The translations under genes and the position numbers were made by a program. Source: Calditrichia bacterium (GTDB taxonomy: Bacteria > Calditrichota > Calditrichia > JAJRVZ01). From it: DNA of 64,000 bases. The notes beneath the pieces were generated by a model. It had not been told where the DNA came from, searched no databases, and worked only from the letters and a program-made list of their open reading frames with translations. Positions within the stretch are counted from its first letter, which is position 1; each line of letters begins with the position of its first letter. The stretch is from NCBI GenBank assembly GCA_963777955.1, contig CAVZSQ010000003.1:184753-248752 (forward strand), read 5' to 3'. Below are positions 11,029 to 64,000 of the stretch, one piece after another.

Positions 11029-11076
11029 CAATTTATTGTCTGGTCATCGTAATTAATTTAACCAGACCGGTGGATT

Positions 11077-31763: not shown

Positions 31764-32587
31764 CGCCAGGCAGGGACAGAGAGACAAAGAAAGACACAAA
31801 GGCACAAAGGATGGGGGAATGAGATCTATGGGTGCAAAGAACGGTCTGGTAGCCGCATCCTTCAGGATGCGTTTGATAATACAAGGTATTATTGGTAGCC
31901 GCAACTCTTGAGTTGCGGTTTGATGCCGGAGGTATCAACTGTTTGTAGAACACGATGTGCTGAATAACCTACCCCTTTCATCCCCTCCCTGGTCCCCGAG
32001 CAAAGTCGAGGGGATAAGGGAGGGGAAAGAGGGGGGGGTTAGGGAGGGAAAAAGGGTGAAGGAAAAAGGCACAGATGCCTAAGTTTGTTATCCATGGTTT
32101 TAAAAGCCGCTGGATTCAAAATCCAGTGAGCGTGATCCGGCAGCTGCCGGAAGGGTTCAAGTCCCACCTTCGGCACAGTAGGGGCGCATTGCGATGCGCT
32201 CTTGTGTACCTGAGCCCCTGAGTACCCGAGTTCATTAAAATTCGCTTGGGGAACGCTGTACCGGTCGTCGAGCGAAGTCGAAACGTTCCCCTCTCGAGAG
32301 GGATGCCCCGACAAAGTCGGGGCGGGGTGTGTGGTGAAAAGGCGCAAAAGTAGGGGCAAGTCGCGACTTGCCCCTTCTTTTCGCCTGCCTGGCGGCAGAC
32401 AGGTTTTAACCTTTATCCTTCTTTTCAAGATTCCCGCCTGTACGATCATCAGGCAAGGCCTGCGCTGAGCGGGAATGACTCCCGAAGCCTTTGCATGCTC
32501 AGGAACTCAGGACTCAGGTATTTTTCTTCATAGGCTATCAGGTTTTTTGTACCTTTGTACCTCTGTCCCTTTGTCTCTTTGTCCCTG
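31764..32587. repeat. ~0.8 kb non-coding element bounded by a ~36-bp imperfect inverted repeat ((G/A)ACAAAG-type). It contains GC-rich palindromes and a tRNA-Leu(CAA)-like 3' fragment (32110-32176).
   Basis: The left arm gggacagagagacaaagaaagacacaaaggcacaaagg pairs with the right arm cctttgtacctctgtccctttgtctctttgtccctg. Inside lie ctgga-ttcaaaa-tccag (anticodon arm, CAA), tccggcagctgccgga (variable arm) and gggttcaagtccc (T-arm). No acceptor/D arm is present, and only junk ORFs. Confidence 0.5.
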
Positions 32588-48668: not shown

Positions 48669-50762
48669 TTATCCATTCTCACCACATGAACGCGCCATCT
48701 GCAGTAAATAGAAACGCAATTGATTCTGTTGCTTCTCCGATAAAATATGTTCCTCGATACGCGCAATCCTTTCCACATCCTGCAGGGCGCGAATGATATC
48801 CAGCGGCAACTCGGTCATGGCTGTGGGCATCTGGGTTACATACTGTACTACGGAAATCAGGAACTGGCGCAAGCCATCATCCTTAACTCCGCGCAAAGAC
48901 TGTGACACCTGCGAACTCAAGCGCATGATTTTACCCGGTTCCACCGACAACGATGATTTATTCCAGCCCTGACCGGTTATTAAAGAATGAACAGCCAGCG
49001 CCAGTTGCACAAAACTCTCCACCTGCTGCTGGATCGGATCGGTCAGCAGCGTCCAGATATGCGTGCGCAGTTGTTTGACCTTCTCGGGTAAAATTAAAAC
49101 AGGTTCGATATTATCAGACCACGAAGCATCAATCCGGCCATGAATGTTTTGCAGCAGTTGATCCAGGCGGGTGTTAAAAATATCAGCCTGCAGCAGTACC
49201 GCGTACTGCGGATGAATGGCCGGCAGCAGATCAGGTTTGAACTGGTCATTTTCAAAGAAATCAGAGATATCGAGTCCCTGCCGTTTCAGCAATTCTTTCT
49301 GGAAGAAGGGGATGAACCGGTCCATGGCATCCAGGTCTTCGCGCATGGCCAGGAAGGAAGAATTGCCCGGCGGAAAACATTTTTCAATCCGCTTGGCATA
49401 GATCATCTCCCGATCCTGGTACATCCGCATGGTTTGCAGAATTTCATATACCGGTAACCGGGGTAAAATGCGATCGCTGATCAGGGTAATGGCTTCGCTG
49501 TAACTGGTCTGGGTGTTCAGAAATTCAGTCAGCGCCCGGAAAATACCGGTGGTAAGTTGATTCAGACCCAGTATCATGGTCTGGGCTTTGTAATGCCCGA
49601 TGGCCCTTAATAAACTGCCGTGCCTGGATAGCGGTAAGATCTGGGCAAAGCGGTCGATAAGTTTTTCGCTGCGCGTCCCCCCTTTAGCCGGATCGGGCCG
49701 GACGGTCGGGCGGTCGCGCAGCGGCGGAATGGCCCGCGATACGAAATAGGAGATGACATGAATTCCCACCACATCCTCATCGCGTCCGTAAATGATTTGC
49801 CGGAAATTCTGGGTCAGCAATTTCAGAAAATCGGTATAGATATTATCGACAGGTCCGCAGGTGATTCTTTCCAGTTCCTGTAAACCACGGGAGCGGAATT
49901 GCAAACGGGTAGCCTGTAAAGGTTCGCTGATTTGCTGCAACTGCCGCCGGTGGAAAGTCTGGGCCTGTTGCAGGTGATATAGAATCTGGGCCAGTTCGGC
50001 AGCCGGTATGAATTTCAATTGCTCAGCCAGGTTGCTCTGCACGGTCAGCAGATCCCGGTGCGCCATGATCCCGGTTAAAGGACTGCGGGCATACTGGGTA
50101 CTGTGCCGGGTGGAGGATTGTAGATTTTCCAGTAATCTTTTTTTGGCATATTTTTCCATCAGGAAAGTCGAATCCTGCTGCAAGGCGGAATAATACCCTC
50201 CCTGCCGCTGCATCGGTTCCCCGCACCCCAGTTTGATCCGGATAGAATCCACCAGACCATGCTCGGCACACCAACGGACCGCCTGATGTTTGGCCCGGCG
50301 GTAAGCATCAGCTCCGGCCGGTTGACTGATTTGCTGGCTAAGATCCGAACCGGCAATAAACAATTCACAGATCATCTCGGAAAAACGATCAGCCACCTGT
50401 TGATCCAGCCGGCGGCTTTTAATGGAATAATCCCATAATTTATCGAGATAGTTATCCAGGTGATTGACCGTATCCAGTTCTTCAAACAAGGGGATCAACC
50501 AGAGTGACGGAGTGTCCAGATCCGGATTGTTGCGCAGGGAATATTCACGTTTGGCCCGCATCTTGCGGTCCAGGGCAATCAGGGCATCCGGATCACTGGA
50601 CATACTGACCTGCATGGCCAGGACCAGAGCCGGATTACCGTATTTACCCGAAATTTCATTTATTTCAATCATATTGTGAACGGTGGTATCGATGGCGAAT
50701 TGATCACTGGAGGTGATCATATTCTGATGAATACGCGGAGTGAGTACAAATCGTCGCAGCAA
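48669..50762 (-). CDS. Large hypothetical protein (697 aa); last gene of the flotillin-led operon
   Basis: Long ORF with no recognisable catalytic motif. It follows the 814-aa gene with a ~30-nt gap. Confidence 0.5.
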   Translation of the reverse strand: MLRRFVLTPRIHQNMITSSDQFAIDTTVHNMIEINEISGKYGNPALVLAMQVSMSSDPDALIALDRKMRAKREYSLRNNPDLDTPSLWLIPLFEELDTVNHLDNYLDKLWDYSIKSRRLDQQVADRFSEMICELFIAGSDLSQQISQPAGADAYRRAKHQAVRWCAEHGLVDSIRIKLGCGEPMQRQGGYYSALQQDSTFLMEKYAKKRLLENLQSSTRHSTQYARSPLTGIMAHRDLLTVQSNLAEQLKFIPAAELAQILYHLQQAQTFHRRQLQQISEPLQATRLQFRSRGLQELERITCGPVDNIYTDFLKLLTQNFRQIIYGRDEDVVGIHVISYFVSRAIPPLRDRPTVRPDPAKGGTRSEKLIDRFAQILPLSRHGSLLRAIGHYKAQTMILGLNQLTTGIFRALTEFLNTQTSYSEAITLISDRILPRLPVYEILQTMRMYQDREMIYAKRIEKCFPPGNSSFLAMREDLDAMDRFIPFFQKELLKRQGLDISDFFENDQFKPDLLPAIHPQYAVLLQADIFNTRLDQLLQNIHGRIDASWSDNIEPVLILPEKVKQLRTHIWTLLTDPIQQQVESFVQLALAVHSLITGQGWNKSSLSVEPGKIMRLSSQVSQSLRGVKDDGLRQFLISVVQYVTQMPTAMTELPLDIIRALQDVERIARIEEHILSEKQQNQLRFYLLQMARSCGENG

Positions 50763-50793
50763 ACTGCGAAAAGAACCGGCCGCTACAGCCAGT

Positions 50794-53238
50794 TTAGGGA
50801 TGGTTTAAATTTTTCTGGATGAGCGGCAGTGATTCATATAAAGTCTTGCGCAGTTGCTTATTCAGGGCGAAATAGTATTCCAGTAATTCACGGCGCTGCT
50901 GACGTAACTGGACCATTCTTCGTTCCAGGCGATCATTATGCAACCAGAGTGATTTTACCGGATCGCGCGCCAGATGCAAAGCCATCGCCGTCCGGCGCAG
51001 GCGGCCGGTCTGCAGATTAAAAGGCAGGAAACTGCGAAAGCGTTGTTCCAATTGGTTGGTTAACAGAGTGATCTTATCCAGTAAATCGCGGAGTTTGCGG
51101 TTGCTGGCCGGTAATTGCTGTATCCTGGAATGCAGATCATCGGGAATATGCAAGGTCCGCTCGATAGTTGCCAGGATATTCAGAATGTGGGCCTGCTGAT
51201 TGACATTTTCCACCACCACGCCTGCCACCAGCCGGTGCCCCTGGCCCGAAGGCCGGGTACTGCCGTCCCAGTCACCCCAGAAGGAGAGCAGTAATTGTGT
51301 TGAGGAAGTACTGTTCCAGCGGGTATATTCCTCGGCCATAAGGTAGGTTTTGATATCGGCCACCAGTTCATCGGCTTCCTGCGAAGAACTGATAGCTACA
51401 CTCTGGCCCAGATATTCCTGTAGCAAATTAGTACCGAGGTTCTGTATAACCTCGCCGGCAAAATTCTTGGTTTGCAGAAATCCTTCGATCAACTGGTTGG
51501 CCGTCAGGTCCACCGGCAGACCGAACATCTGGGTGGGGTGTACGGTACGGTCGAACAGACGTTGCCGGAAATTCAGAGATCGCTGTCGCAGGTCTTCTTT
51601 GTAAAATTCTTTTTCCAGGATATCGATAATCTGTTTCCGGCGGTCGCTGTTTATAAGGGCTAACAGATCGGCAGTTGACTCCAGCCTGTCGGTAAAACGC
51701 TGCTGTAATTGAGCCAGCCGTTCAGGCAGATATTGTTCCAGGAATAGTTTACGGATGGACTGACCATCGATGCCTGTGGCACCTTTTTCAGTCTGCTTAC
51801 CGATCAAAAACCGGCCACGCTGGATTACTTGTTTGCCGGCTTTTTGCCATTTCTCCAGGGCATCGGGAAAGAACTGATTATAGTTATGTTTTTTAGATAT
51901 AACCCGGATTTTGCTACGGTTGTAGGCAGAGGTTTCTTCGGCAATCATACCGTTAAGATCGATCAGCATACGCCGCATCTTGTGCAATAAAATATCGGCA
52001 TTATCCCGGCCGCCCAGGGTCAGGCGGAAAGTTTTGCGGGCAACTTCATAGCCGCTGGCCGTGCGGGCGAACGTGGTCAGCGGAATCAGGCCGATACCGC
52101 GGGTGGCTAAACCGGAAGCCAGCCAGGAAAGGGAAAGACCGGATGGCAGGTGATTTATGACCAGATGCGGATACATACTACCCTGCGGGCGTTTGACTGA
52201 AATAGAAAAAGAATTTCTTTCCGCGGGGAAATCGGCAACCGCCCGTTCTAACGCAGCCATCCTTTCGGCAAAGATCTGGTTGCGCAACAGCCAGAATGAG
52301 CGGACTTTTTCCGGAGAATTGCGATAAAACAGATAGGCTAACAAAACGGCCATGATATTCGGTTTAAACAGGGACATATAGGATGTAAACCGGGCCAGCA
52401 ATTGCGGGTGCAGAATTTCCACCACCGCCAGGCGTGCCCCGGCAAAACAGTCGGTTTTGGATAACGAATGGACGGTGACCAGATATTGCAGATGATCGGA
52501 ACGGATCCGGCCTTGCTGCACCATGGCAGTGGCCAGTTGACGCAAGGTTTTAGGACCGGTCAATTCATTTGCCGGGGCAACCAGTTGATAGGAGAGATCA
52601 TCGATGACATGAATTTTTCTGGGCAGCAGAAACTGCAGCAAGGCTGTTACTTTATTTTCCGCGAAAATTTTTCCGGTGGCGTTATGCGGATTATTCAAAA
52701 TAAAAGCAGCCGATTCAGACCAGTGCGGATCGGCAGCGGACTTCCGTTCTACGGTATTAATAATGGCTGGAACATCCAGTTCAAATTCCGCCGTCAATGG
52801 TACAACTTCGACCCGGGGAAAACAATGTTCATAAGTCCAACTCAGATCTGTGGAAATAACCTCGGCCAGGCCGCAGTGGAAACCCAGGACGCTCAGCGCA
52901 GTGCGTGCCGAACCGGGTATTACCCTGCAGTTCTCAGTGGCATAATAAGGATGATGACTGGAAAATGCGCCCAGGAAACTGGCGATTAAATTCTGCTGGA
53001 AGTCGGGATTAATTCCCTGTTCGGAAAATAACAGGACAACTTCTTCATTTGACAGGCTGGAAAAATAATCTACTGCTGATCCACTTTGCGGCAGGTGGGG
53101 TATAAATCTTGAATTCCACTCTTTGCTGATCCGGTAACTGCGCGTTAATTTTTGAGACCAGGTTGTATTTTTAGTCTCAAGCCGCTCATGTACTCTCTTT
53201 ACGGCAAGATTAAAATGATCCAGCACCAGGCCGGGCAT
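50794..53238 (-). CDS. Fusion protein: class-I/II PLP-aminotransferase-fold domain (about 1-400) plus a ~430 aa C-terminal domain of unknown function
   Basis: NNPHNATGKIF (NPxNPTG-type), VHSLSKTDCFAGARLAVV (S-x-SK..G.R PLP-lysine motif). The C-terminal half has no match I can recognise. Confidence 0.55.
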   Translation of the reverse strand: MPGLVLDHFNLAVKRVHERLETKNTTWSQKLTRSYRISKEWNSRFIPHLPQSGSAVDYFSSLSNEEVVLLFSEQGINPDFQQNLIASFLGAFSSHHPYYATENCRVIPGSARTALSVLGFHCGLAEVISTDLSWTYEHCFPRVEVVPLTAEFELDVPAIINTVERKSAADPHWSESAAFILNNPHNATGKIFAENKVTALLQFLLPRKIHVIDDLSYQLVAPANELTGPKTLRQLATAMVQQGRIRSDHLQYLVTVHSLSKTDCFAGARLAVVEILHPQLLARFTSYMSLFKPNIMAVLLAYLFYRNSPEKVRSFWLLRNQIFAERMAALERAVADFPAERNSFSISVKRPQGSMYPHLVINHLPSGLSLSWLASGLATRGIGLIPLTTFARTASGYEVARKTFRLTLGGRDNADILLHKMRRMLIDLNGMIAEETSAYNRSKIRVISKKHNYNQFFPDALEKWQKAGKQVIQRGRFLIGKQTEKGATGIDGQSIRKLFLEQYLPERLAQLQQRFTDRLESTADLLALINSDRRKQIIDILEKEFYKEDLRQRSLNFRQRLFDRTVHPTQMFGLPVDLTANQLIEGFLQTKNFAGEVIQNLGTNLLQEYLGQSVAISSSQEADELVADIKTYLMAEEYTRWNSTSSTQLLLSFWGDWDGSTRPSGQGHRLVAGVVVENVNQQAHILNILATIERTLHIPDDLHSRIQQLPASNRKLRDLLDKITLLTNQLEQRFRSFLPFNLQTGRLRRTAMALHLARDPVKSLWLHNDRLERRMVQLRQQRRELLEYYFALNKQLRKTLYESLPLIQKNLNHP

Positions 53239-54227
53239 TGGCAGAGGGGTAGCGGAGTAACTTGCGGTCTGACTGTTTCTGTCCCTGCAGGTTTAACCGC
53301 AATTAATTTTGGCTCGCCGGTCAATATAAAATTCAGGTGATCCATCTCAGCAGCAGCCGGGGTACCCTTTAATTCGAACTGAACAGTTTCAATAATCCGC
53401 AGATATGCGGCATTACCGAGAAGAAAACCTGTAGTAAGCGAATCAAGTTGTTCGGCGAAAACGGCCGGAAAAATAATCCGGATCACCCGGTTGAGCATTT
53501 GAACTTCGCGGGCCAGGGAGAGATGGTTGGGCGCATTGTTCCCTTCGATGAAGAACAGGGGATGGGTTAAACCCAACTGACGCAATTGCCGGCGGGTAGT
53601 CTCGGAAAAAACAGATCCTATGACAAAAAATACCGGACATTCGGGATTTTCGGTCAGATAGTTTTTGCTCTGTTGTATGATGGCCTGCTCGGTGCCGTTT
53701 AACTGCCGGATGGTTAAACCGGGAAAATTTGCTAAATGCTGCGGCAAAGATATTCCCTGAATCAGGATATGAGCCGGTTTGGTCATGAGGTAACGCGATA
53801 AGGAATGGAAAATTATACGCAGAGTTTCATGAATACCGCCGTTGACAATAATGCATTCGCGTTGTCCGGATTCCTCGCCAAAATCATAACTTAGCGGTTC
53901 ATCCTGACCGGATAATAACCACTGCTTCACATAATTGATCAGGGGGATCGGGCGCTGGCGGGAAAAACCTCCCCGTGGCGAGTAGTTGATACTGTTATTG
54001 ATAGCCTGGTAAACTAATTGCCGGCAGGTGCCGGGTTGACCGGCATCTTCAGGGTTGTCTTCCGGTAAGACCAGCTGGCTGTATAATGCTATTAGGCGAT
54101 CATCCTGAACCGGATTACCGATATGAAAATTAACCCGTTCCTGTTCCGGGACAGTTGAAGCTGCGGTCGCTTCGCTGATTTCCGAAATAGTAGCGGCCTG
54201 CAAGGGCCGTAACTGAAAATACTTCAT
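53199..54227 (-). CDS. Degenerate aminotransferase-like protein (N-terminal AT-fold features, no PLP-lysine motif)
   Basis: FHIGNP...INYSPRGG resembles the AT N-terminal G.P / Y.P..G motifs. No S-x-SK motif is present. It overlaps the 814-aa gene by 40 nt. The start is chosen at MKYFQL (54227) just downstream of the flotillin stop. Confidence 0.4.
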   Translation of the reverse strand: MKYFQLRPLQAATISEISEATAASTVPEQERVNFHIGNPVQDDRLIALYSQLVLPEDNPEDAGQPGTCRQLVYQAINNSINYSPRGGFSRQRPIPLINYVKQWLLSGQDEPLSYDFGEESGQRECIIVNGGIHETLRIIFHSLSRYLMTKPAHILIQGISLPQHLANFPGLTIRQLNGTEQAIIQQSKNYLTENPECPVFFVIGSVFSETTRRQLRQLGLTHPLFFIEGNNAPNHLSLAREVQMLNRVIRIIFPAVFAEQLDSLTTGFLLGNAAYLRIIETVQFELKGTPAAAEMDHLNFILTGEPKLIAVKPAGTETVRPQVTPLPLCQCPAWCWIILILP

Positions 54228-54249
54228 GGACTCGCTGCCGGCAGCAGAA

Positions 54250-55239
54250 CTATTTTCCACCAGTCGATTTTTTCTCCCCTGATTTAGCGACTCCCGGAAC
54301 AAGATTCTGCAGGAAAGACTGCAGCAGTCCCAGGATGTGCGATCCCTGATTTGCTTCCTGCGGGGACAGGGAAATGACCGTACGGGCGTTGCGCAGGGTT
54401 TGACTTGCTTCAGCAAGTCGGGTGAATTGTGGATTCAGCAGCAGTAACTCCGGATTCTGCTTGAATAATTCGAGTTCCTTTTTATCGGCGGCAAGTTGCA
54501 GTTCGCGTCGCTTCAATTCCTCTTGTACCCGCAGAGTGGCGATGGCCGCTTCTTTTTCTTCGGTTACTTTTTTCAGTTCATATCTTTTGAGTTCCAGGTT
54601 ATGTTCGGCCAGGGCAATTTTTTCATCGGCATCGATGCGCACGCGGGTTGCGGCAATACGGGCTTTTTGTTTTTCGCTTTCGGTTTGTTCCAGGATGCGG
54701 CTGGATTCCTGCTGATGCATGGCCTCGGCAATTTCCTCGTCCAGCGGATCGATAGATTGAATGCTCAGCGCAACCAGGTCCAGCCCGAGGTCATGGCTGG
54801 TTTTACTCAATTGTTCCTGTAAATGGCTGGCTAATTTTGCCGAGGACAATTCTTCCAGGGCATATAGTTCCGTATAGCCTTTGACTGCGGAATAGACCAC
54901 CACCTGCAGTTCTTTGGCGGCCTTGGCTACGGCATCTTCATTCCAGCCGCCTGCCCGGATTAACTGGGACAGGTGACCATCAGCCGGAGCCACGCTCAAA
55001 ATGACCACTACCTGCAGGCCGAGTTTTCCTTTGGCTTCAGCTTCCACTTTTACCGAAAGGGAATGCGTTGTACCCAGCAATGGCAGACTGAAATGGCGGG
55101 GGTATAAACGTCTGCGCCGCTGTTTGACATCTCCGGCTTTTTCATATAATATAATATGATCCGGTTTGCGCAGCCGGTATTCATAAAACAGGTAAGCGAT
55201 GATGACGATCAGTGCCGCGACAAGAGCATAAACCCACAT
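54250..55239 (-). CDS. Flotillin-like SPFH/band-7 protein with a coiled-coil tail
   Basis: N-terminal TM MWVYALVAALIVIIAYLF, an SPFH core, and a long EA/KE-rich coiled coil (..KKVTEEKEAAIATLRVQEELKRRELQLAADKKELE..). Confidence 0.65.
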   Translation of the reverse strand: MWVYALVAALIVIIAYLFYEYRLRKPDHIILYEKAGDVKQRRRRLYPRHFSLPLLGTTHSLSVKVEAEAKGKLGLQVVVILSVAPADGHLSQLIRAGGWNEDAVAKAAKELQVVVYSAVKGYTELYALEELSSAKLASHLQEQLSKTSHDLGLDLVALSIQSIDPLDEEIAEAMHQQESSRILEQTESEKQKARIAATRVRIDADEKIALAEHNLELKRYELKKVTEEKEAAIATLRVQEELKRRELQLAADKKELELFKQNPELLLLNPQFTRLAEASQTLRNARTVISLSPQEANQGSHILGLLQSFLQNLVPGVAKSGEKKSTGGK

Positions 55240-55478
55240 ATTTACTTCCCTCCTGAAAATGGGGTATTTTAATTTCTTCTGTTGTATTATCCCCGCCGGT
55301 CAGCAGATACTAACTGTCTTTAAGTACTGGTAGTTAGAGCAATATGCATCAATCAGGGGATCGGAAACACATTGTCGTGAAAATTAGTTACTGAAGGTAT
55401 AGAAATCAAGATGAGAATTATATATGGTTTTACTTGACTGCTTAGCCGGGTGTAAGTAAATTTCTACACTTTTTAAAC

Positions 55479-55596
55479 GGTCCGGTAGTTTCTCGACTAT
55501 TGTCGGGAGTTAGAGCACCTGTACGTCTACCTGGCGTTAGACAAACCGTCACGCAGGAAGTTGTCCGGCAGCTGCCGGAAGTCTCGCCCGTCCCGA
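55479..55596 (+). ncRNA. tRNA-Asp-derived RNA gene copy A, with its own TTGACT-17-TAAATT promoter, three hairpin insertions (D-loop, anticodon region, T-arm), and a 3' strand that cannot pair into an acceptor stem
   Basis: GGTCCGGTAGTT[tctcgactattgtcgggag]TTAGAGCACCTG[tacgtctacctggcgttagacaaacc]GTCACGCAGGAAGTTG[tccggcagctgccgga]AGTCTCGCCCGTCCCG aligned to the intact tRNA-Asp at 55885. Confidence 0.5.
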
Positions 55597-55700
55597 TGAG
55601 TGAACATTATGAACGAATCGGGATCCGTTCATCCCCCATTGTACTTTTGTTTTACTTGACTGAAAGATTTGGGCTGTTAATCTTACAACACTTTAAATAA

Positions 55701-55815
55701 GGACCGGTAGTTTCCCGACTGAGGTCGGGAGTTAGAGCACCTGTACGTCTACCTGGCGTTAGACAGGCCGTCACGCAGGAAGTTGTCCGGCAGTGCCGGA
55801 AGTATCGTCCGTAGC
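55701..55815 (+). ncRNA. tRNA-Asp-derived RNA gene copy B (paralogue of A), promoter TTGACT-16-TAATCT, same three insertions, with a compensatory change in the D-loop hairpin
   Basis: A has CUCGAC/GUCGGG (one U.G pair); B has CCCGAC/GUCGGG (all Watson-Crick). The anticodon-region hairpin GUCUA-CCUGGCGU-UAGAC is identical in both. Confidence 0.5.
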
Positions 55816-55884
55816 CCCCCTTTTGTCCTGTTGTTTTACTTGACTGAAAGATTTGACCTGCTTATATTTCATCACTTAAAAATT

Positions 55885-55959
55885 GGTCCGGTAGTTCAAT
55901 TTGGTTAGAGCACCTGCCTGTCACGCAGGAAGTTGCGAGTTCGAGTCTCGTCCGGACCG
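55885..55959 (+). tRNA. tRNA-Asp (anticodon GTC), with upstream promoter TTGACT-17-TATATT (55839-55867) and downstream terminator gccccccttgtgggggcttttt
   Basis: GGTCCGGTAGTTCAATTTGGTTAGAGCACCTGCCTGTCACGCAGGAAGTTGCGAGTTCGAGTCTCGTCCGGACCG forms a canonical cloverleaf with anticodon loop CUGUCAC. No CCA is encoded. Confidence 0.85.
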
Positions 55960-56002
55960 CTGGTAGCAGCCCCCCTTGTGGGGGCTTTTTAATTTAATAC
56001 AG

Positions 56003-56083
56003 CCACGCAGGAAGTTGTCCGGCAGACTCCGCCGGAAGTCTCGTCCGGACCGCGGGTAGAAGCCCCCCTTGTGGGGGCTTTTT
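56003..56083 (+). repeat. Partial tRNA-Asp copy (anticodon loop to 3' end, T-arm carrying a hairpin insertion) plus a copy of the tRNA terminator; att-site-like
   Basis: CACGCAGGAAGTTGtccggcagactccgccggaAGTCTCGTCCGGACCGcgggtagaagccccccttgtgggggcttttt. A further remnant gaagtcttgtccggaccacg lies at 56127-56146, followed by the hairpin ccattgttgttatataacaatgg. Confidence 0.6.
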
Positions 56084-56525
56084 AATTTCATGAATTCATA
56101 TAGACAGTAGGCCCCGATATATCGGCGAAGTCTTGTCCGGACCACGATGTACCATTGTTGTTATATAACAATGGGTTTATTATTTCATGCCAACTTTACA
56201 ATACCAAGGTAATGCTACCTCTATCATTATCAATGGTAAAATCAACTATGAACAGCATTCTTTTTACAGATTAATTTAGTAGATTGCTATTTGCATTTTA
56301 ATATTTATATTGAATAACAAGTATCAATAGTTATACAAATTGAGTCCCTTTTCGGTTTATTAATTTTCTTACAGATAGTAGAAGAAACAATTTAATTTAA
56401 CCAACGTTTAAAAAATTGTATTGATTTATTATGTTTATTGCGATTCAATAAAAGGCATGATTCTATTTGATATACGTTAAATCGCCACAAAGATGCTGTG
56501 GTTTACGAGGTAAAATGGAGGGATT

Positions 56526-58860
56526 ATGGGTGACTGCATGCAAAATATTACCAAAGAAATCTTTAAGAATTCATGCCTATTATTTCTTGCTATTGTATTC
56601 TTCCCTGAATTACTTTTCTGTCAAACAGAACGAGTTGATATTTCAATTTGGCAAGAAGAGAGTGGTAGCAAACAGCTTCTTCAAAAAGGTGTACCAGTTA
56701 TATTTCCATCACAGACTTTTCATTACAATCGCAACGAGAGAGAACAATATTTATGGACGAACTCTTCGCTTGATATACAATATCAAACCATGATATCAGA
56801 TACAGGGTCTTTTCAACCTGTTTCTGGTCCTTATGGTGGAACCGTCCGGAGTATCGCTCTCGATTCTGACGGTTGGCTTTTTATTGCCACAGATGGTGAG
56901 GTCTATAGATCGAAAGATAATGGATTACACTGGGATATGAATCTTTTCCCCTCACAGATACATAACTTTGTTGAACCTGTAACCATCCTTGGTCCAAATG
57001 TGGTGGTCGCTGAAACAGATTTCGGTAACTTCATCTCAAGGGACAGGGGTGAATCCTGGAATTATTTGCTCGATGATGTACAAGGGTTTGCAGTTGATAC
57101 AACTGGGGTGATATATGCAGGGTCAAATTATGATGGAATTATGAAATCAACTGACGCAGCAAAGTCCTGGACACAATATGCATTGGCGGGAAGAAAGATC
57201 TTCAAAGTGGTCCTGTGTGGCGAAGGAAAATTCGCTTGCTATTCCGATTCGGGTATTTTCGTATCTTCTGATAATGGAATAACATGGATACTCAGACCTA
57301 AGGAGACCGGAGACACTCGGTACTTGGTGAGTGATAAACGAGGAAACCTATTTATCCTGAAATTCTTGAATGAACGCTTACAACTTTATCGTAGCAGTGA
57401 TTTTGGAGAAATATGGCAGCACATAGTTTTGCCAACATCGGGGCATGCATATCGAGTTTACGTAGAAAACGATGGGAGTCTAATTGTACCTACTACTAGT
57501 ACCCGAAAATCGTAAAGACAAAATTCTAATGTCCACTGATGCTGGAGAAACATGGAGGGAGTTGCCATTTCCTGTTGGTGCGCCTCTAACCGTAGGCAGA
57601 GATGCTACGGGGAAATTACTGGCAGGATGTTTCAATGGCATTTACAAGTATAATGATACTGATAGTGATTGGAGCGAACTTAACAATGGTATTCATGCCC
57701 GGAGGATTGACGAGATTGAGTCTACCTCTACAGGATCAATTCTTGTACTTAGCTTGGGTACATGTTTCCGAAGCACAGATTATGGAAATTGTTGGACAAG
57801 TGTGTATATTGGTGGTCCGGCCGGTGGTACATATCCACACACTCCAATTCTTTGTACATCAGGTGGAAATATTTTTATTGCAGCCGTTTTTTATGACAAT
57901 TCTGAATGCGGTCTTTTCCGCTCTACAGACGATGGTTTATCCTGGGATCGGATTTCAGTCCCCTCAAATTACTATCAAATTTCTGGAATCACCGAAGGCC
58001 CTTCAGGAGACATTTTAATATCTACTTATTTCGGCGACATCTACCGTTCCACTGATAAAGGAGATTCATGGATCAGGGTTGTTTCGAGTGCAAGCCAATC
58101 AGAAATTACATGTATCGCTTCGGATAAAATAGGGAATTACTATGCGGCAAAGGATACGTCTATACTCTTCTCTCCTGATGGAATTGTTTGGGAAGTGTTT
58201 TCTATGAAACGTAACTATTACCCTCATGAATCAATGTGTATTGATACCCGTGGAGAGATTTTCCTTGGTTCGTTGTTCGATGGAGTTTATCATTCCTCTG
58301 ATCAAGCTAGAACCTGGAACCTGATGAATGACGGCCTCATTGATAAATATGTAATAAGCACAACGGCAGACGATAGTGGGAACGTTGTCCTGGGAACATC
58401 ATCTGGGATTTTCCGTCTTGCTGATTCCATTGAAAGTTGGTCGAGTTTTAGTAATGGTTTCCCGAATACTTTCACAAAAGCACTCTCCATTTCTCCACAG
58501 GGTTATTTGTATGCGGGGACTCAAAGCTTCGGAATATATAGGAGTGTTCGTCCAATTGGAAAACGTATTCAAAAGGTCAATCCTCCTCCTATACTGGATA
58601 TTACTGAATTCAGTCTTTACCAGAATTACCCTAATCCTTTCAATGATCAAACTGTTATCCGTTATGAGGTGCCTTCTAATGCAAGGGTTGAGATCAGGAT
58701 ATACAATATTCTGGGACAGGTGGTAACTACACTCATCTCGGACGATTTGCCTGAGGGCAGTTACGATATGGGATGGACTCCAAAACAACTTTCCAGTGGG
58801 CTTGTACTTCTGCGAGATGAAAGCTTCCTCAGGTTCAAGAACATATACGAAAGTAATTAA
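56526..58860 (+). pseudogene. BNR/Ycf48-like beta-propeller surface protein with a T9SS C-terminal sorting domain, split by a frameshift in an A4 run (~57507-57510)
   Basis: Recurrent S-x-D-x-G-x-T/S-W units (SKDNGLHW, SRDRGESW, STDAAKSW, SSDNGITW, STDAGETW, STDYGNCW, STDDGLSW, STDKGDSW). C-terminal FSLYQNYPNPFNDQTVIRYEVP. Removing one A gives ..PTTSTRNRKDKILMSTDAGETW. Confidence 0.7.
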
Positions 58861-58911
58861 ACTCATGTATCTACGATGAGATGGTAGGTCGCGGAAACGT
58901 AACGGTCTATC

Positions 58912-58975
58912 TATTTCCAGGTAAAAATGACCATCATCAGGGTTCTCTGAGACCCCCATCCGCCCCGCTGGTAGA
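58912..58975 (+). repeat. ~55-nt repeat R (tttccaggtaaaaatgaccatcatcagggttctctgagacccccatccgccccg) directly after the T9SS gene. A second copy sits after the beta-helix T9SS gene at 63945-64000.
   Basis: About 90% identical to 63945-64000: tttccaggcaaatgtaacgatcatcagggttctctgtgacccccatccgccccg. Confidence 0.75.
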
Positions 58976-59010
58976 AGCCTCCCTTGTGGAGGTTTTTTAA
59001 TTTAATAAGG

Positions 59011-59093
59011 TCACGCAGGAAGTTGTCCGGGCTCCGGAAGTCTCGTCCGGACCGCTGGATAGGGTTCGTGAAGAATTATTCACGACCTTTTTT
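59011..59093 (+). repeat. Partial tRNA-Asp copy (anticodon loop to 3' end, variant T-arm insert) plus hairpin terminator; att-site-like
   Basis: tCACGCAGGAAGTTGtccgggctccggaAGTCTCGTCCGGACCGctgg, preceded by gaagcctcccttgtggaggtttttt and followed by cgtgaagaattattcacg + tttttt. Confidence 0.6.
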
Positions 59094-59106
59094 GTTGTAG
59101 GATTTT

Positions 59107-59349
59107 ATGTGGCATGTATATATAATTTGCTCTAAAAAGATTGATCATTACTATATCGGAGTCACTGACAATCTCACCTGGCGTCTGGAGAGACATAACC
59201 AAGGCTGGGGCCGATACACGAAACGAGGTATTCCATGGAAAATTGTTTATACTGAATCATTCGCAAACAAGACTGATGCATTAAGTCGAGAAAGAGAACT
59301 CAAAAAACTCAAAAGTAGAAAACATATCGAGCAATTAATTAATAAATAG
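59107..59349 (+). CDS. Small GIY-YIG nuclease-family protein (UPF0213/YhbQ-like, 80 aa)
   Basis: MWHVYIICSKKIDHYYIGVTDNLTWRLERHNQG...RERELKKLKSRK carries the GIY-YIG core (YIGVT..L..RL..H) and a catalytic Glu-like position. Confidence 0.65.
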   Translation: MWHVYIICSKKIDHYYIGVTDNLTWRLERHNQGWGRYTKRGIPWKIVYTESFANKTDALSRERELKKLKSRKHIEQLINK

Positions 59350-59479
59350 TGTCTCGCAGGAAGTTGTCCCGATCGCAGGTCAGCCCCCTTTTTAGGGAGG
59401 CTTTTATTTTTATAAAGTTATGCCGGAAGTCTCGTCCGGACCGCATTAACCCATTGTTATAAATTACAGTGGGTTTTTT
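59350..59479 (+). repeat. Partial tRNA-Asp copy with a larger T-arm insert, plus hairpin terminator
   Basis: tCtCGCAGGAAGTTGtcccgatcgcaggtcagccccctttttagggaggcttttatttttataaagttatgccggaAGTCTCGTCCGGACCGcattaacccattgttataaattacagtgggtttttt. Confidence 0.55.
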
Positions 59480-59911
59480 ATTTTAGGGTAATGCTATAGT
59501 TAATCTTACCAACTCACTTATAAAATTGCATCACACATCAATGTGAATAAAAAGTTCAAGTGCTCCCAAGAGGACGTCGTCAGATCTATCATTGTAAATG
59601 GTAATATCACCACCCAAGAGCACTAATTCTTTGAAGGATATATTTTTATTTCAAATCCAAAAATATTTATTATATTATACCGTTAGAAACAATTACTACT
59701 CCAGATAGACCTGCTTCCGGACTATAGATTCTCTCAGAGATAGCAGAAAAAATAGGTAAATAATAAATATAGGAATGCATAATTCATTTATGAATTTATT
59801 TTTACTTTTATATATATCGGTTTTGCTCACTAATATCAAATAAATTAACCGGACCCCGAGTACTCGGGGCTGGTTGTCTCAACCGTTATGTAATATATTT
59901 AGGAGTAAAAA

Positions 59912-62900
59912 ATGAAGGTCTTTCGAGTAATATCTATAATTATTCTCTTTACGATTTTTTATAAAACGTCTGATGCAACTATAAATATATCAGGTCAAGT
60001 TTCAGGTAAATGGACAAAATCAGAATCCCCCTATTATATCGATGACGATATTACAATTGATTCAGGGGATACCCTGATTATCGAACCGGGAGTGATTATT
60101 AAATTTTCACCGGGTAAGAGTTTGTTTGTAAATGGCACGTTAAAGGCCATCGGCCTGTCTGAGGATCGTATTACTTTTTCATCAACTCAAGCGGATCAAT
60201 ATTGGGGGATAATTCTTTTTCTGAACATGGATGCAAGTTTGAGTGAATTGGATTATTGCCTCATTGAAAAGGCATCGCATATCCGGGACTTCTGGGAATG
60301 GGGTGCAGTCTCAATTTCTGGCCTGAGAATACATATATCCAATTGTATAATTCAGAACAATCAGAATGATGGTATCTGGTGTGATTATCAGGGTTCGCAA
60401 CCGAGTGGTGTACAAATCAGAATTATGAATAATATCATTATGGAGAATGGAGAAGATGGTATTTTTACTGTCACTGAGGGAGACAGTGTTTTCCAGTGTC
60501 AATATAATCAGATATTACGAAATGGTCGTCATGGAGTTCAATTCTGGGTTGCGAACGGAATTTTTACGAACAATGTTGTTGCTGAAAACTCAGGACATGG
60601 TATATTTTTCACAAATTCAACTGCACGATTGAATTTAAATACGATTGCCAATAACTCGTCTATGGGTATCTATTGTGACTGGAATTCTCATCCAATAATA
60701 ACGAATAGCATTATTTATGGTAACCAGCAAGGGTCAATTGAATTAAAACAGTCTGAAATCGAAGTGACCTATACCGACATACAGGATTATTGGGACGGAA
60801 TTGGAAATATTACTTTCCCGCCTCAATTTGTTGATCCGGATGCGGATGATTATCATCTTTCACCTACTTCACCTTGTATTGACGGGGGTGATCCTGCCGC
60901 TGATTTTTCAAATGAACCAGAACCGAATGGTAGTGTTTTAAATATGGGGGCGTATGGCAATACTCCGGAAGCGTCACAGTCCACAACAAATGCACCGGAG
61001 ATTTTAGTTAAAACTCCAAGGCTCTTTTTTGGTAAATCAGCCAATGATGATTCGGTTAATCGGGAACTTGTTGTTAAGAATTTAGGTGATTTTATGCTAA
61101 CAATAGATAAAATTGAATTTGCGACAGAAAATTTTAGTGCAGATTATTCCACTATTAATATTCCCCCGCTTGATTCAGCCACCTTGTCTATATCTTTTAA
61201 TCCAAAAGGACAAAATGAAATTTATTCAGATACCTTGAGAATATATTCGAATGATATCAATGAAAACCCAACGTTGGTGCCACTGGAAGGACGTACTGGA
61301 ACTTACGTTTCTGGAGAAGTATCGGGTACATGGACGGTTGAACATAGCCCTTATTTCATTCAAACAAATGTGGTTGTGCCTGCTGGAGTCAGTTTAACAA
61401 TTGAACCAGGGGTTGAAGTGAAATTAAAACCATACCCTGAATGGCAAAATGGCGCTCTGTTCAAAGTTTATGGCACCTTGATTGCTGTCGGATCGCCAGA
61501 GGACAGTATTTATTTTACCAGAATGGAGGATAACGGCTGGTGGGGTGCCATCCTTTTTCAGGATGCGAGTAATGATTGCAGAATGGAATACTGTTCGGTT
61601 TCCTATGGTTCAGGGACCCAAGTTGGATCATATTCAGATTATGCTGCTGTATTCTGTTACAATTCCGCCCCGGCAATTAAAAATTCCTTATTTATTTATA
61701 ATATTTATGGTATTTCAATTCGGGAGTATTACGGTGGTAATAAAGCTGTTATCATGAATAATCTATTTGTGTACAATATGGAATCTGGAGTCAATAACGA
61801 AGTTCTGAATACTGTAATAAAAAACAATATCATGCATCATAATGGCACTGGAATTTCCTGTATGGAAAGAGCAGTCATTGCAAACAACACTATTGTTAAT
61901 AATACAACCGGAATATGGTTAAGTGGTTATTCCAAATCGTTGGTGAAAAACTGTATTATCTGGAATAATTCGACTAATATTGAAGATCTGAATATTGATT
62001 GGGCGGGTGCGGTTGAAGTAAAATTTTGTGACGTACAAGGAGGTTGGTCCGGTTATGGTAATCTTGATATGAATCCTCTTTTTGTCAACGCTGATTTAAA
62101 TGACTATCATTTGCTTCCTTTATCGCCCTGCATAGATGGTGGTGATCCAATAGATGATTGTACCCTGGAACCTGTACCCAATGGCGGGATTGTGAATATG
62201 GGTGCTTTCGGGAATACGTTGGAAGCTGCTCCGTCACCGGATAACGCACCTGAAATACTCATCACCCAACCGATGATTGATTTTGGTTTGCTAGCCACAA
62301 ATCAGCAAGACTCTTCCCTTGTGACCATAAGAAATATTGGAACAAGTCCCTTGAATATCATGAATATAGTATTAGATAATTCTTCGTTTAGTTGCGTATG
62401 GGAACAGACAGAAATAGCGCCGGATGACAGCATTAATATTTGGATATACTTTCAAAGTCCTACTGAGGGGACTTTTTTAGACACACTGTGGTTATACAAT
62501 AATGACCTCTCAGAGGGAATAAGCTTTGTCCTCCTCCAAGCTAAAACGACATCTGCTCTGTTCGGTGAAATCTCAGGATCATTCACCAAGGAGCATGGCC
62601 CGTATATTATCGGCTCGGATGTCACTGTTCCTGCAGCAGCAACACTTACTTTGGAACCAGGCGTACGTCTTGAATTTATGGCTAAGGCATCACTTTTTGT
62701 TTATGGTACGTTGAATTGTGTTGGTACTGAAGAAGATAGTATTATTTTTACGACTCATACTGACCAACAATATTGGGGTAGTATTTATTTCGGGCTGGAG
62801 AGTGATGATAGCAAAATGCAGTATACCGTTGTCGAGTATGGTAAAGGATACGGTAAATATATCGGTTCCTTTTTCGGTGCAGCGGTTTCTCTGATCGCCT

Positions 62901-63847
62901 GTGAGGGTTCCGGACCCCTGTTTTCACATAATATGCTTCGTCCGATCGGTATAGGGGGCATTTACGTTATGAGTGCCGTTACTGAGATAACGGATAATAA
63001 AGTATTGGGAGGTGCCTATGCGGGAATCCGGAGTTGTAACAGCACGACATCCATCATTAGAAACTTTGTCCAGGGAAATAGCGATCATGGTATCGATGTC
63101 GACGGTGGCGGTAGTTCTGTGCTGACCAATAATATTCTGGTTGGTAACGGTAATGGTGTGTACAATGCGGATACTGATATTCAAATTATCAACAATACGA
63201 TAACGGATAACTCGAATTCGGGAATCATGTGTTGGGGTTCTATTACGTCACGAAAAATTAAAAACAATATTATCTGGGGTAATTATCAACCATTTTATCT
63301 TTATGGTGGCGCTGAATGGGCAAAAATCGATGCTACCTATAATGATATTGAGGGAGGTTGGGAAGGCGAAGGAAATATTGATCTGAATCCTGAATTTGTG
63401 AATGCTGAGGACGATAATTATCGTTTAGGTGAAAACTCAGCATGTATCAATGCCGGTGATCCGAATCATAAGTATAATGATAAAGATGGTTCGCGAAATG
63501 ACATGGGCGCTACAGGTGGATTGAATGGATACTATTTGATTACATCGGTTCATGATACTGCTAATATTGAGAATGCAATTCCAAAATTCTTTTCTTTATC
63601 CCAGAATTATCCCAATCCCTTCAATCCCAGCACGACTATCAGTTATAATCTCCCGGTGCGCAGTCATGTACTGCTTCGAGTGTATGATCTGCTCGGTCGG
63701 GTAGTGGCGACAATGGTGAATGAGAATCTGAATGCCGGCTCACACGCAGCATTCTGGAACGCAGCGGGCTTTGCCAGTGGAGTGTATCTGTATCGACTGC
63801 AGGCTGGGAAATACACTGAAACGAAGAAACTTGTTTTGCTGAGATAA
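59912..63847 (+). CDS. 1311-aa right-handed parallel beta-helix (PbH1-repeat) cell-surface protein with threefold internal modular duplication and a T9SS C-terminal sorting domain
   Basis: Signal peptide. Three module starts: ISGQVSGKWTKSESPYYIDDDITI..EPGVIIKF, VSGEVSGTWTVEHSPYFIQTNVVV..EPGVEVKL and FGEISGSFTKEHGPYIIGSDVTV..EPGVRLEF. Three ..NGS/GxVNMGAxGNTxEAxxSxxNAPEIL junctions. C-terminal FSLSQNYPNPFNPSTTISYNLP. Confidence 0.8.
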   Translation: MKVFRVISIIILFTIFYKTSDATINISGQVSGKWTKSESPYYIDDDITIDSGDTLIIEPGVIIKFSPGKSLFVNGTLKAIGLSEDRITFSSTQADQYWGIILFLNMDASLSELDYCLIEKASHIRDFWEWGAVSISGLRIHISNCIIQNNQNDGIWCDYQGSQPSGVQIRIMNNIIMENGEDGIFTVTEGDSVFQCQYNQILRNGRHGVQFWVANGIFTNNVVAENSGHGIFFTNSTARLNLNTIANNSSMGIYCDWNSHPIITNSIIYGNQQGSIELKQSEIEVTYTDIQDYWDGIGNITFPPQFVDPDADDYHLSPTSPCIDGGDPAADFSNEPEPNGSVLNMGAYGNTPEASQSTTNAPEILVKTPRLFFGKSANDDSVNRELVVKNLGDFMLTIDKIEFATENFSADYSTINIPPLDSATLSISFNPKGQNEIYSDTLRIYSNDINENPTLVPLEGRTGTYVSGEVSGTWTVEHSPYFIQTNVVVPAGVSLTIEPGVEVKLKPYPEWQNGALFKVYGTLIAVGSPEDSIYFTRMEDNGWWGAILFQDASNDCRMEYCSVSYGSGTQVGSYSDYAAVFCYNSAPAIKNSLFIYNIYGISIREYYGGNKAVIMNNLFVYNMESGVNNEVLNTVIKNNIMHHNGTGISCMERAVIANNTIVNNTTGIWLSGYSKSLVKNCIIWNNSTNIEDLNIDWAGAVEVKFCDVQGGWSGYGNLDMNPLFVNADLNDYHLLPLSPCIDGGDPIDDCTLEPVPNGGIVNMGAFGNTLEAAPSPDNAPEILITQPMIDFGLLATNQQDSSLVTIRNIGTSPLNIMNIVLDNSSFSCVWEQTEIAPDDSINIWIYFQSPTEGTFLDTLWLYNNDLSEGISFVLLQAKTTSALFGEISGSFTKEHGPYIIGSDVTVPAAATLTLEPGVRLEFMAKASLFVYGTLNCVGTEEDSIIFTTHTDQQYWGSIYFGLESDDSKMQYTVVEYGKGYGKYIGSFFGAAVSLIACEGSGPLFSHNMLRPIGIGGIYVMSAVTEITDNKVLGGAYAGIRSCNSTTSIIRNFVQGNSDHGIDVDGGGSSVLTNNILVGNGNGVYNADTDIQIINNTITDNSNSGIMCWGSITSRKIKNNIIWGNYQPFYLYGGAEWAKIDATYNDIEGGWEGEGNIDLNPEFVNAEDDNYRLGENSACINAGDPNHKYNDKDGSRNDMGATGGLNGYYLITSVHDTANIENAIPKFFSLSQNYPNPFNPSTTISYNLPVRSHVLLRVYDLLGRVVATMVNENLNAGSHAAFWNAAGFASGVYLYRLQAGKYTETKKLVLLR

Positions 63848-64000
63848 GGAGATAGTAATTACCAAAAAGCTTTCCTCATACAAAAACCTTTCTTCTACTG
63901 ATTACCCCCTTCGGAGTAGAGATACCTTGGAGGGGGTATTTTACTGTTTCCAGGCAAATGTAACGATCATCAGGGTTCTCTGTGACCCCCATCCGCCCCG

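Follow-up and report, generated by a model that had tools for sequence, protein, structure and literature searches.

The 64,000-nucleotide stretch of the Calditrichia bacterium contig CAVZSQ010000003.1 analysed here (positions 184,753 to 248,752; hereafter, the window) contains, next to a gene encoding an SPFH-domain protein (54250-55239, - strand), an array of sequences related to tRNA-Asp. In this array, one intact tRNA-Asp gene, two remodelled tRNA-like paralogues (A and B), partial tRNA copies (P units) and a further repeat (R) are interspersed with terminator-like hairpins, two genes encoding proteins with a type IX secretion system (T9SS) C-terminal domain and a gene encoding an 80-amino-acid GIY-YIG nuclease (Table 1). 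The array is derived from tRNA and modular, varies between strains with junction-precise breakpoints, and contains a fixed module in which the GIY-YIG gene is joined to a P unit.

ARAGORN and Rfam each call a single tRNA-Asp gene in the window, in agreement with the first-pass annotation of this DNA, which had proposed one intact tRNA-Asp accompanied by partial copies of its 3' half. The segment CACGCAGGAAGTTG, which comprises the 3' side of the anticodon loop, the anticodon stem and the variable loop, occurs six times against 0.36 expected, a count reached in none of 100 shuffles, and the segment AGTCTCGTCCGGACC, which comprises the end of the T-loop and the 3' strands of the T-stem and acceptor, occurs nine times at up to three mismatches against 0.92 expected. 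All six copies of the former and seven of the nine matches to the latter fall within 55540-59445, the other two being three-mismatch matches at 1923 and 23896. Each P unit consists of a 5' block, a variable hairpin that sits at the position of the T-arm, and a 3' block; on alignment, the partial copies match the tRNA-Asp exactly over 14 nt and over 16-17 nt, which bears out their proposed derivation. The copies predicted at 56003, 59011 and 59350 were located at 56003, 59011 and 59351, whereas the sequence at 56127, described as a remnant, does contain a tRNA-derived block but is the 3' part of a diverged full unit (P1b). P3 (59351-59443) is composite, with a truncated unit followed by a terminator and then a 3' block, and P1, P2 and P3b have AGTCTCGTCCGGACCG(C) in common with the tRNA 3' end.

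Every P unit is followed by a terminator-like hairpin, as the first-pass annotation had stated, and these hairpins fall into two classes, T1 (CTGGTAG.AGCC.CCC..GGG.GGCTTTTT) and T2 (CATTAA.CCA.TGTT..AACAGTGG.TTTTTTATTT). Repeat R was likewise found 3' of both T9SS genes (58911-58967 and 63944-64000, 88% match), its second copy being preceded by the terminator hairpin of the beta-helix gene itself (63907-63938). Past position 56000 the GC content drops from ~0.5 to 0.35-0.43, and the array repeats themselves were confirmed in independent assemblies.

Table 1. Features of the tRNA-Asp array in the window, with the basis for each assignment (L007 is a related locus described in the text)
Feature	Positions	Strand	Basis
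Promoter-like site TTGACT-17-TAAATT, 5' of paralogue A; first of three GTTTTACTTGACTG copies	55434-55462	+	promoter scan; repeat family D14
Paralogue A, remodelled tRNA-Asp-like, degenerate acceptor 3' strand	55479-55595	+	alignment A3; pair counts; nhmmer families A5, P
Second GTTTTACTTGACTG promoter box, 5' of paralogue B	55649-55684	+	repeat families D14, D6; under promoter-scan threshold
Paralogue B, orthologue of the single paralogue of L007	55701-55815	+	alignment A3; nhmmer; L007 synteny
Promoter-like site TTGACT-17-TATATT, 5' of tRNA-Asp	55840-55868	+	top promoter-scan match, 10/12
Intact tRNA-Asp (anticodon GTC)	55885-55960	+	ARAGORN; Rfam, 65.6 bits
Trailer and T1 terminator hairpin (CTGGTAG.AGCCCCCC..GGGGGGCTTTTT)	55961-56002	+	family D1; scan; nhmmer
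P1: 5' block, hairpin TCCGGC..GCCGGA, 3' block identical to tRNA 3' end	56003-56052	+	block counts; nhmmer
Second T1 terminator	56053-56094	+	repeat search; terminator scan; nhmmer
P1b, full but diverged P unit	56095-56145	+	sequence reading; family D2
T2-class hairpin and diverged copy of native tRNA flank	56146-56260	+	families D10, D13; nhmmer
BNR/Sortilin-type propeller gene, T9SS C-terminal domain (Por_Secre_tail)	56526-58878	+	Pfam; read across two frameshifts, ~57505 and ~58800
Repeat R copy 1, ending ..TCCGCCCCG	58902-58967	+	family D11; alignment A2; nhmmer
Third T1 terminator	58968-59010	+	repeat search; nhmmer
P2, hairpin TCCGG GCT CCGGA	59011-59054	+	block counts; nhmmer
Trailer and hairpin h (CTGGATAGGGTTCGTGAAGAATTATTCACGACCTTTTTT), ending 15 nt 5' of GIY-YIG ATG	59055-59106	+	terminator scan
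80-aa GIY-YIG nuclease gene, bare catalytic domain (UPF0213 / prokaryotic Slx1-like)	59107-59349	+	Pfam, 2.5e-16
P3a, truncated P unit, starting directly after GIY-YIG stop codon	59351-59378	+	sequence reading; block counts; nhmmer
T1-like terminator inside composite P3	59379-59421	+	nhmmer T1h family, E 0.0045
P3b, 3' block identical to tRNA 3' end; right copy of 16-nt direct repeat	59422-59443	+	block counts; alignment A1; nhmmer
T2 hairpin and ~150 nt of native flank	59444-59597	+	alignment A1; nhmmer, E 2e-40
Beta-helix / Ig-like repeat protein gene, 1311 aa, T9SS C-terminal domain (Por_Secre_tail)	59912-63847	+	Pfam
Repeat R copy 2, ending at the last base of the window	63939-64000	+	repeat search; nhmmer

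Relatives were identified through homologues of the SPFH gene, which carry the names Ignavibacteriales or Bacteroidota, and the contigs of the closest ones were compared with the window. In L007, L008 and L009 (SPFH identity 96%) a single paralogue, orthologous to B, and the tRNA-Asp are followed directly by the T2 hairpin and flank. L017 (88%) presents a truncated paralogue, the tRNA and then the flank also found in L007, L010 (90%) has no paralogue and a tRNA with an odd 3' end, and tRNA-Asp is absent at this position in L015 and L016 (84% and 78%) and in L011, L012 and L014 (73%). It follows that the tRNA-Asp gene, too, is in a region subject to movement or replacement. The ~150 nt 3' of the tRNA in L007 and L017 align with window positions 59444-59597, directly after P3b (alignment A1), and the window sequence 55961-59443 (~3.5 kb) is thus an insertion that separates the tRNA from its native flank. 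This insert is bounded by a perfect 16-nt direct repeat, AGTCTCGTCCGGACCG, at 55944-55959 and 59428-59443. In these respects it resembles a tRNA-targeting integrative island: direct repeats of the tRNA 3' end flank it, the tRNA is intact, and the site is empty in L007 and L017.

Two further observations concern the borders of this region. The tRNA-Asp and the array are both missing beside the SPFH gene in the 73-84% relatives (L015 1-350; L016 1340-1530; L011 9702-10001). The ~150-nt flank (59444-59597; L007 9495-9340 (-); L017 3257-3101 (-)) is conserved in three relatives, the genes downstream of it differ completely, and it contains a motif, TTTTAGGGTAA, that is also found after other array terminators; either it is an unannotated element or the variable region has a second fixed boundary here.

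Across these loci the arrays follow a common order, with a terminator hairpin (T1, T2 or a third form, h), optional cargo and a tRNA-3'-like end, denoted X, which can be the tRNA, P or R. When families P, R, T1/h, T2 and A5 were mapped with nhmmer over 274 kb, matches were confined to the arrays (window, L007, L017, L018, L022 and L023), and the end/hairpin combinations present were tRNA/T1, tRNA/T2, P/T1, P/T2, P/h, R/T1, R/T2 and R/h. R and P recur 3' of the tRNA in relatives, and both the number and the content of units differ between close relatives, as had been anticipated. Cargo in the window comprises the BNR-T9SS, GIY-YIG and beta-helix-T9SS genes. L007 carries a sensor kinase, a response regulator and a beta-lactamase-T9SS protein, followed by NYN and a decayed GIY-YIG gene, and L017 carries an outer-membrane protein beta-barrel and T9SS C-terminal domain remnant, DUF433/DUF5615 and ~350 nt of non-coding DNA. 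L018, an array on the same contig as L007, ~25 kb off and with no tRNA, runs from a chromate transporter through R, a nucleotidyltransferase pair, a second R, CotH-T9SS, a third R and GIY-YIG-P to kdp. Cargo over the relatives thus includes T9SS proteins, toxin-antitoxin pairs, NYN and a kinase/regulator pair, some of it multi-gene or on the opposite strand, and the first-pass view of a system diversifying T9SS surface proteins proved too narrow.

The comparison also located the breakpoints. L022 and L007 are near-identical across the NYN region and lose similarity exactly after the end of R (alignment A4), and the tRNA-Asp of L010 is chimeric, with an R-type 3' end (GTCCG/CCCCG), two acceptor mismatches and an Rfam score of 53 against 65.6 bits for the window tRNA. 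Because L022 and L007 break after R and the L010 tRNA carries an R-type end, we place the exchange point at the ..CCG/C junction. One R copy in L018 is broken by a 46-nt insertion (3973-4018; GTTCGACTCTCCCGCCGCAAGAAGTCGGGATCGCTCACGACAAGCT), the start of which resembles the 3' part of a tRNA T-arm.

The GIY-YIG protein is matched along nearly its whole length by PF01541 (residues 1-72, E 2.5e-16), and among known structures it matches PDB 1ZG2 (BH0048; residues 3-78, E 2.2e-7) and 1YWL (EF2693; E 1e-4). The motifs VYI, YIG/YTG, R..ERH and RE.E are retained among its homologues, and dN/dS lies at 0.10-0.16, by which estimate the gene is under purifying selection. Most of the homologues (n=86) are 80 aa long, and many are found on very short contigs, as repeated elements are. 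No match to the protein was obtained in plasmids, NCBIfam or PADLOC; in phages it matches weakly, at ~40% identity, genes of Rhizobium phage, and viral contigs yielded no relatives of P, R or the GIY-YIG gene. Exact look-ups of the window's 1311-aa and 80-aa proteins gave no record. We found no paper tying GIY-YIG or UPF0213 proteins to tRNA-Asp repeats, nor one assigning a function to the UPF0213 family.

In every context fetched, the gene stands in a fixed order: an X end, a hairpin 0-15 nt 5' of the ATG, the open reading frame (ORF), and P, which begins right 3' of the stop codon and at the position of the anticodon loop. The order hairpin-ORF-P is present in all five intact gene copies, drawn from four contexts (the window, L018, where it lies beside kdp with no tRNA, L022 and, twice, L023), and is kept at 68-89% protein identity. 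Hairpin h also precedes the gene in L018 and L022, and the copy in L007 is decayed. L023 comes from a more distant genome with a different neighbourhood, in which three tandem paralogues and a tRNA-Asp are followed by repeated P-hairpin-GIY-YIG, and its hairpin sequences differ. Its 2.3-kb array (9436-11700) packs together the three near-identical tandem paralogues, the tRNA-Asp, two GIY-YIG genes (the start of one is likely frameshifted), two remnants of such genes and a HigB/HigA pair.

These data allow an account without dedicated mobility to be assessed, in which the tRNA 3' end and its terminator were duplicated in tandem, as in the tRNA-linked repeats of E. coli, homologous recombination, deletion and replacement followed, and the GIY-YIG gene is incidental. 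Such an account would explain P1, which lies between two terminators and whose last 17 nt are the tRNA 3' end, the very definition of a tRNA-linked repeat (PMC8144298), as well as the paralogues, which clearly stem from tandem duplication, promoter included. Similarity among the repeat units of the window (78-100%) also suffices for homologous exchange, and cargo replacement could use R and the ~150-nt native flank as homology arms. P and R are, however, found at L018, which lacks tRNA-Asp; the hairpin-ORF-P order persists over four unrelated contexts at the protein divergence given above; and homology between strains stops precisely at the end-hairpin junction, the same point at which the L010 tRNA is chimeric. 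On balance we regard this explanation as rather unlikely.

A Pfam search of 39 window ORFs, nearly all those of integrase-like size, identified no integrase or other recombinase family, the ORFs scanned being housekeeping genes only; this search covers the 64-kb window, which ends inside R copy 2, and agrees with the first-pass annotation, in which no integrase was visible. The called-gene lists of L007 (21 kb), L018 (16 kb) and L023 (17 kb) contain no integrase either. Upstream of the array there is no IntI, attI or integron cassette promoter (Pc), and the SPFH gene and promoter-like sites are found there instead.

The initial suggestion of serial integration or cassette-like accretion at tRNA-Asp thus stands as far as the insertion relative to L007 and L017 is concerned, but the gene lists of the three related arrays show no integrase either. 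In its classical form, serial integration would have tRNA-Asp islands inserted by a tyrosine integrase encoded elsewhere or lost, with P and R as displaced att copies and the GIY-YIG gene as ordinary cargo. The 3.5-kb insert flanked by a perfect 16-nt direct repeat, the restored intact tRNA and the lower GC content of the inserted DNA all fit this explanation. So does the extent of the copies, which reach back to the anticodon loop, as att identity typically does for integrases with crossover in that loop, and tandem islands at tRNA and tmRNA genes are well known, as in the ssrA islands of Dehalococcoides (PMC3146451) and those at Asn tDNAs of Klebsiella (PMC4891358). Against it stand the missing recombinase, both in the 39 window ORFs and in the three related gene lists, the R/P arrays at the tRNA-less locus L018, and the size of several would-be islands, which would consist of a terminator alone (42-50 nt). 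P is, moreover, tied to the stop codon of one particular gene, and its remodelled T-arm would inactivate the tRNA if taken in; this remodelled hairpin is common to the copies and the upstream paralogues, and the copies are not plain att scars. We therefore consider classical serial integration unlikely.

Alignment of the two upstream paralogues with the tRNA (alignment A3) revealed that A and B, at ~117 nt each, preserve the tRNA skeleton base for base, with a 6-bp hairpin in the D-loop that is absent from the real tRNA, an insertion of ~24 nt directly 5' of the anticodon, and the T-stem 5' strand and T-loop replaced by a palindromic hairpin. In the acceptor, the 3' strand is CCCGTCCCG for A and CCGTAGCC for B, opposite a 5' strand of GGTCCGG or GGACCGG, and pairing is lost. 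Neither is called as a tRNA by ARAGORN, Rfam at E<=10 gives no tRNA match in 55479-55815, and neither in the window nor in the relatives do A, B, P and R belong to any Rfam family. The box GTTTTACTTGACTG lies upstream of A, B and the tRNA-Asp alike. The description of two remodelled, promoter-driven paralogues is thus upheld for the paralogues and the three boxes, and the promoter scan scores two of the three sites. Judging from repeat families D3 and D6, the paralogues clearly arose by tandem duplication together with their promoter. We also considered whether A and B could be integration hybrids, in which a native 5' half is joined to the 3' half of an element, and rejected this: the D-loop hairpin is also present in A and B, and neither hairpin occurs in the real tRNA.

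An extended form of the promoter-like box, TTTACTTGACT, is found 5' of the tRNA-like genes (window 55427, 55649 and 55833), with an A/T-rich, -10-like hexamer 17 nt on, and also 5' of the T9SS gene directly after an R copy in L018 (4052-4100). The ~40 nt 3' of paralogue A (55596-55640; ATGAGTGAAC..GAACGAATCGGGATCCG) resemble an insertion in L023 (10628-10665; TAGAGTGAGC..GCGAACGATTCGGGGTCCGGACCGC) that separates a degenerate from an intact acceptor 3' end, and this stretch may be another small building block shared by the arrays. The other tRNA of the window, a tRNA-Val (2677-2752, -), has no partial copies or repeats downstream.

The hairpins of the P units and paralogues vary in sequence and retain their pairing. 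Thirteen distinct P hairpin sequences were found among 15 units, with an invariant outer TCC..GGA, stem positions 4-8 that vary on both strands (GC to CG, CG to AT), loops of 2-3 nt and no G.U pairs. In alignment A3, 97% of the cells in the four drawn helices are paired, five pairs change on both sides, and none of 500 shuffles reaches the covariation score. Through compensatory changes, pairing is thus kept in the P hairpin and in the paralogues' D-loop hairpin, although the evidence from alignment A3 is supportive and not decisive, because the structure was drawn from the same sequences and only three independent lineages are represented. Folding of single A, B and P sequences gave z values of -0.5 to -3, uninformative for most. 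Elsewhere in the window, a GC-rich non-coding stretch (32240-32400) contains at least four strong hairpins (e.g., CCCCGACAAAGTCGGGG and GGGGCAAGTCGCGACTTGCCCC), one of them similar to the paralogues' D-loop hairpin; Rfam has no family for it.

Such pairing raises the question of whether the system operates on RNA, with the Slx1-like nuclease acting on tRNA-like RNA. The transcripts of A, B and P would then function as decoys or regulators or as small RNAs, the repeats in the DNA being a by-product. In A, B and the L007 paralogue, the D-loop hairpin and anticodon stem contain U.G pairs that are compatible with the sense strand only, which suggests RNA, and the paralogues have promoter-like sites of their own upstream. 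E. coli tRNA-linked repeats can function as small RNAs (PMC8144298), and a fusion of a prokaryotic GIY-YIG domain resembling Slx1 to a TrmH-type tRNA methyltransferase has been taken to suggest a role in RNA metabolism (PMC1564403). The P hairpins, as near-perfect palindromes, nonetheless seem to accord better with symmetry at the DNA level. P units behind strong terminators lack a promoter, two of the three L023 paralogues already have a broken anticodon stem, and the swapped cargo is left unexplained. An RNA-level system accordingly appears very improbable as the primary explanation.

The gene identities proposed for the cargo of the window, a BNR propeller and a beta-helix protein with T9SS domains and a GIY-YIG nuclease, are supported by Pfam. 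Intact orthologues of the BNR gene encode 770-785 aa. The window splits several conserved genes into adjacent ORFs (48669-54416, 11077-12412, 7125-8394, 26743-28456 and 56526-58878): a 1871-aa aminotransferase-like gene of L007 corresponds to three ORFs at 48669-54416, an alpha-amylase is split at 11077-12412, and a solute-binding protein at 7125-8394. The window sequence thus seems rich in small indels, and apparent pseudogenes in it are unreliable. Since conserved core genes are also split, the BNR frameshifts may be assembly errors, and the candidate status of this gene as a true pseudogene was not upheld; P0209, a 95% relative, reads through the window's BNR frameshift and has another of its own in a homopolymer run. 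A 70% orthologue, in L024, lacks R and P, which speaks against the BNR gene as a portable cassette with its own sites.

Taken together, we propose, tentatively and with slightly less than even confidence, that the locus is an accretion array without a visible integrase at tRNA-Asp, with repeats derived from the tRNA 3' half and trailer and with a selfish GIY-YIG-P element as its smallest module. Units would be gained, lost and re-paired through recombination at the ..CCG/C junction. The hairpin, the 80-aa GIY-YIG gene and P would form a selfish module of the homing-endonuclease kind, which lands after a tRNA-like end and recreates one, and its nuclease may be the enzyme behind the exchange. 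The ORF-less hairpin-P units of ~90 nt (P1, P1b, P2 and P3b) would be miniature derivatives of this module, larger cargo such as T9SS genes and toxin-antitoxin pairs would be carried between the same ends, and paralogues A and B would be relatives of P that are tRNA-like and transcribed. A more ambitious extension is distinctly doubtful: that the UPF0213 GIY-YIG protein and the tRNA-Asp-derived P/R ends constitute an undescribed, integrase-free system of gene capture and mobility, a nuclease-driven counterpart of the integron, in which the nuclease cuts at the end-hairpin junction, P acts as landing pad and homology arm, and A and B act as cofactors or immunity decoys.

Several points weigh against the proposed accretion array and its selfish module. 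The catalytic domain fills all 80 aa of the GIY-YIG protein, with no separate DNA-binding or targeting domain, and the hairpin 0-15 nt from its ATG is terminator-like, which puts the route of expression in question. Among the loci of relatives we found no empty/filled pair of one orthologous site for the GIY-YIG module, and similarity between the hairpin-P units and the module minus its gene is AT-rich and for that reason weak. The L024 gene just mentioned is the nearest intact BNR orthologue, and cargo genes therefore do not carry the sites along. As for R, 240 of 2000 shuffles score as well as R does as a 3' fragment of the window's tRNA-Asp, and 21 of 2000 do so with an approximate E. coli-type tRNA-Asp query, a marginal result; a tRNA origin of R is thus not demonstrable by such alignment. 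Exact-match searches with the patterns GCAGGAAGTTGTCCGG..CCGGAAGT (one genome per species) and CCGGAAGTCTYGTCCGGACC (Joint Genome Institute metagenome contigs) returned only chance matches in coding sequence. The comparative evidence comes from about five related lineages in all, and a recombinase could possibly be encoded elsewhere in the genome.

The array shares features with several known systems. The accretion of integrative and conjugative elements and cis-mobilizable elements in Streptococcus thermophilus exemplifies tandem islands, which resemble the present arrays in having direct repeats of an RNA-gene 3' end, an intact RNA gene, strain-variable cargo and adjoining units without an integrase of their own. 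None of the four present arrays with at least 16 kb of context, however, has an integrase module; their units go down to ~90 nt, the site is remodelled instead of faithfully copied, and one array is without a tRNA anchor. The seg genes of phage T4, with SegB located in the T4 tRNA cluster, are examples of free-standing GIY-YIG homing endonuclease genes. Like these, the present genes are small, intergenic, multi-copy, intact in some copies and decayed in others, and patchy among close relatives, whereas their product is a bare 80-aa catalytic domain, UPF0213/Slx1-like and not of the I-TevI/Seg lineage, for which homing is inferred here. Integrons and clusters of attC sites lacking integrases (CALINs) are likewise composed mostly of single-gene units in one orientation, with recombination-site-like repeats at their ends and frequent toxin-antitoxin cargo. 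The present arrays have no IntI, attI or Pc. By inspection of alignment A2, R is a conserved, non-palindromic sequence and not an imperfect palindrome with RYYYAAC and GTTRRRY cores, and the unit boundaries are without GTTRRRY; the sites here are tRNA-like ends followed by terminator hairpins, and some of the cargo departs from the single-gene, same-strand pattern. With stand-alone UPF0213/Slx1-like proteins (1ZG2, 1YWL; PMC1564403) the window protein shares similarity across all 80 aa and a minimal single domain; the link to a tRNA-derived repeat is found here, and none was found described for the family.

The closest known systems are the tandem islands at tRNA or tmRNA genes and, in E. coli, the tRNA-linked repeats (TLRs; Egan & Landy 1978; Rudd 1999; summary in PMC8144298). 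TLRs are short repeats 3' of a tRNA, with a last 17-19 nt equal to the tRNA 3' end, that lie between terminators in one to five copies per locus. The identity with the 3' end of the upstream tRNA that characterizes TLRs (18-19 bp) is seen in P1, P2 and P3b as the shared AGTCTCGTCCGGACCG(C). P1 lies between two T1 terminators, while P2, P3 and the L018 and L022 copies are not behind a tRNA. Unlike TLRs, the present copies reach back to the anticodon loop, and have a variable hairpin in place of the T-arm. They are also found away from tRNA genes, divide up protein-coding cargo and are linked to a GIY-YIG gene. What sets the present arrays apart is thus that the site is remodelled and linked to a minimal GIY-YIG gene, that some arrays have no tRNA anchor, that no integrase is seen, and that hairpins replace both elbow loops in the paralogues.

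If the proposed reading is true, a little-studied phylum (Ignavibacteria and relatives) would shuffle secreted T9SS proteins, toxin-antitoxin pairs and regulators, and would do so at defined sites with no need of the usual integrase. A selfish module would, through its miniature derivatives, give TLRs, known since 1978, a plausible origin. As a separate matter, A and B, with both elbow-forming loops of the tRNA swapped for co-varying hairpins, stand out as tRNA-like genes of an unusual kind that appears to be maintained. An orphan minimal nuclease family (UPF0213/Slx1-like) would also gain a concrete DNA or RNA target, the 3' half of tRNA-Asp, and, were a nuclease-driven capture system to prove true, it would provide the first function for this widespread orphan protein family.

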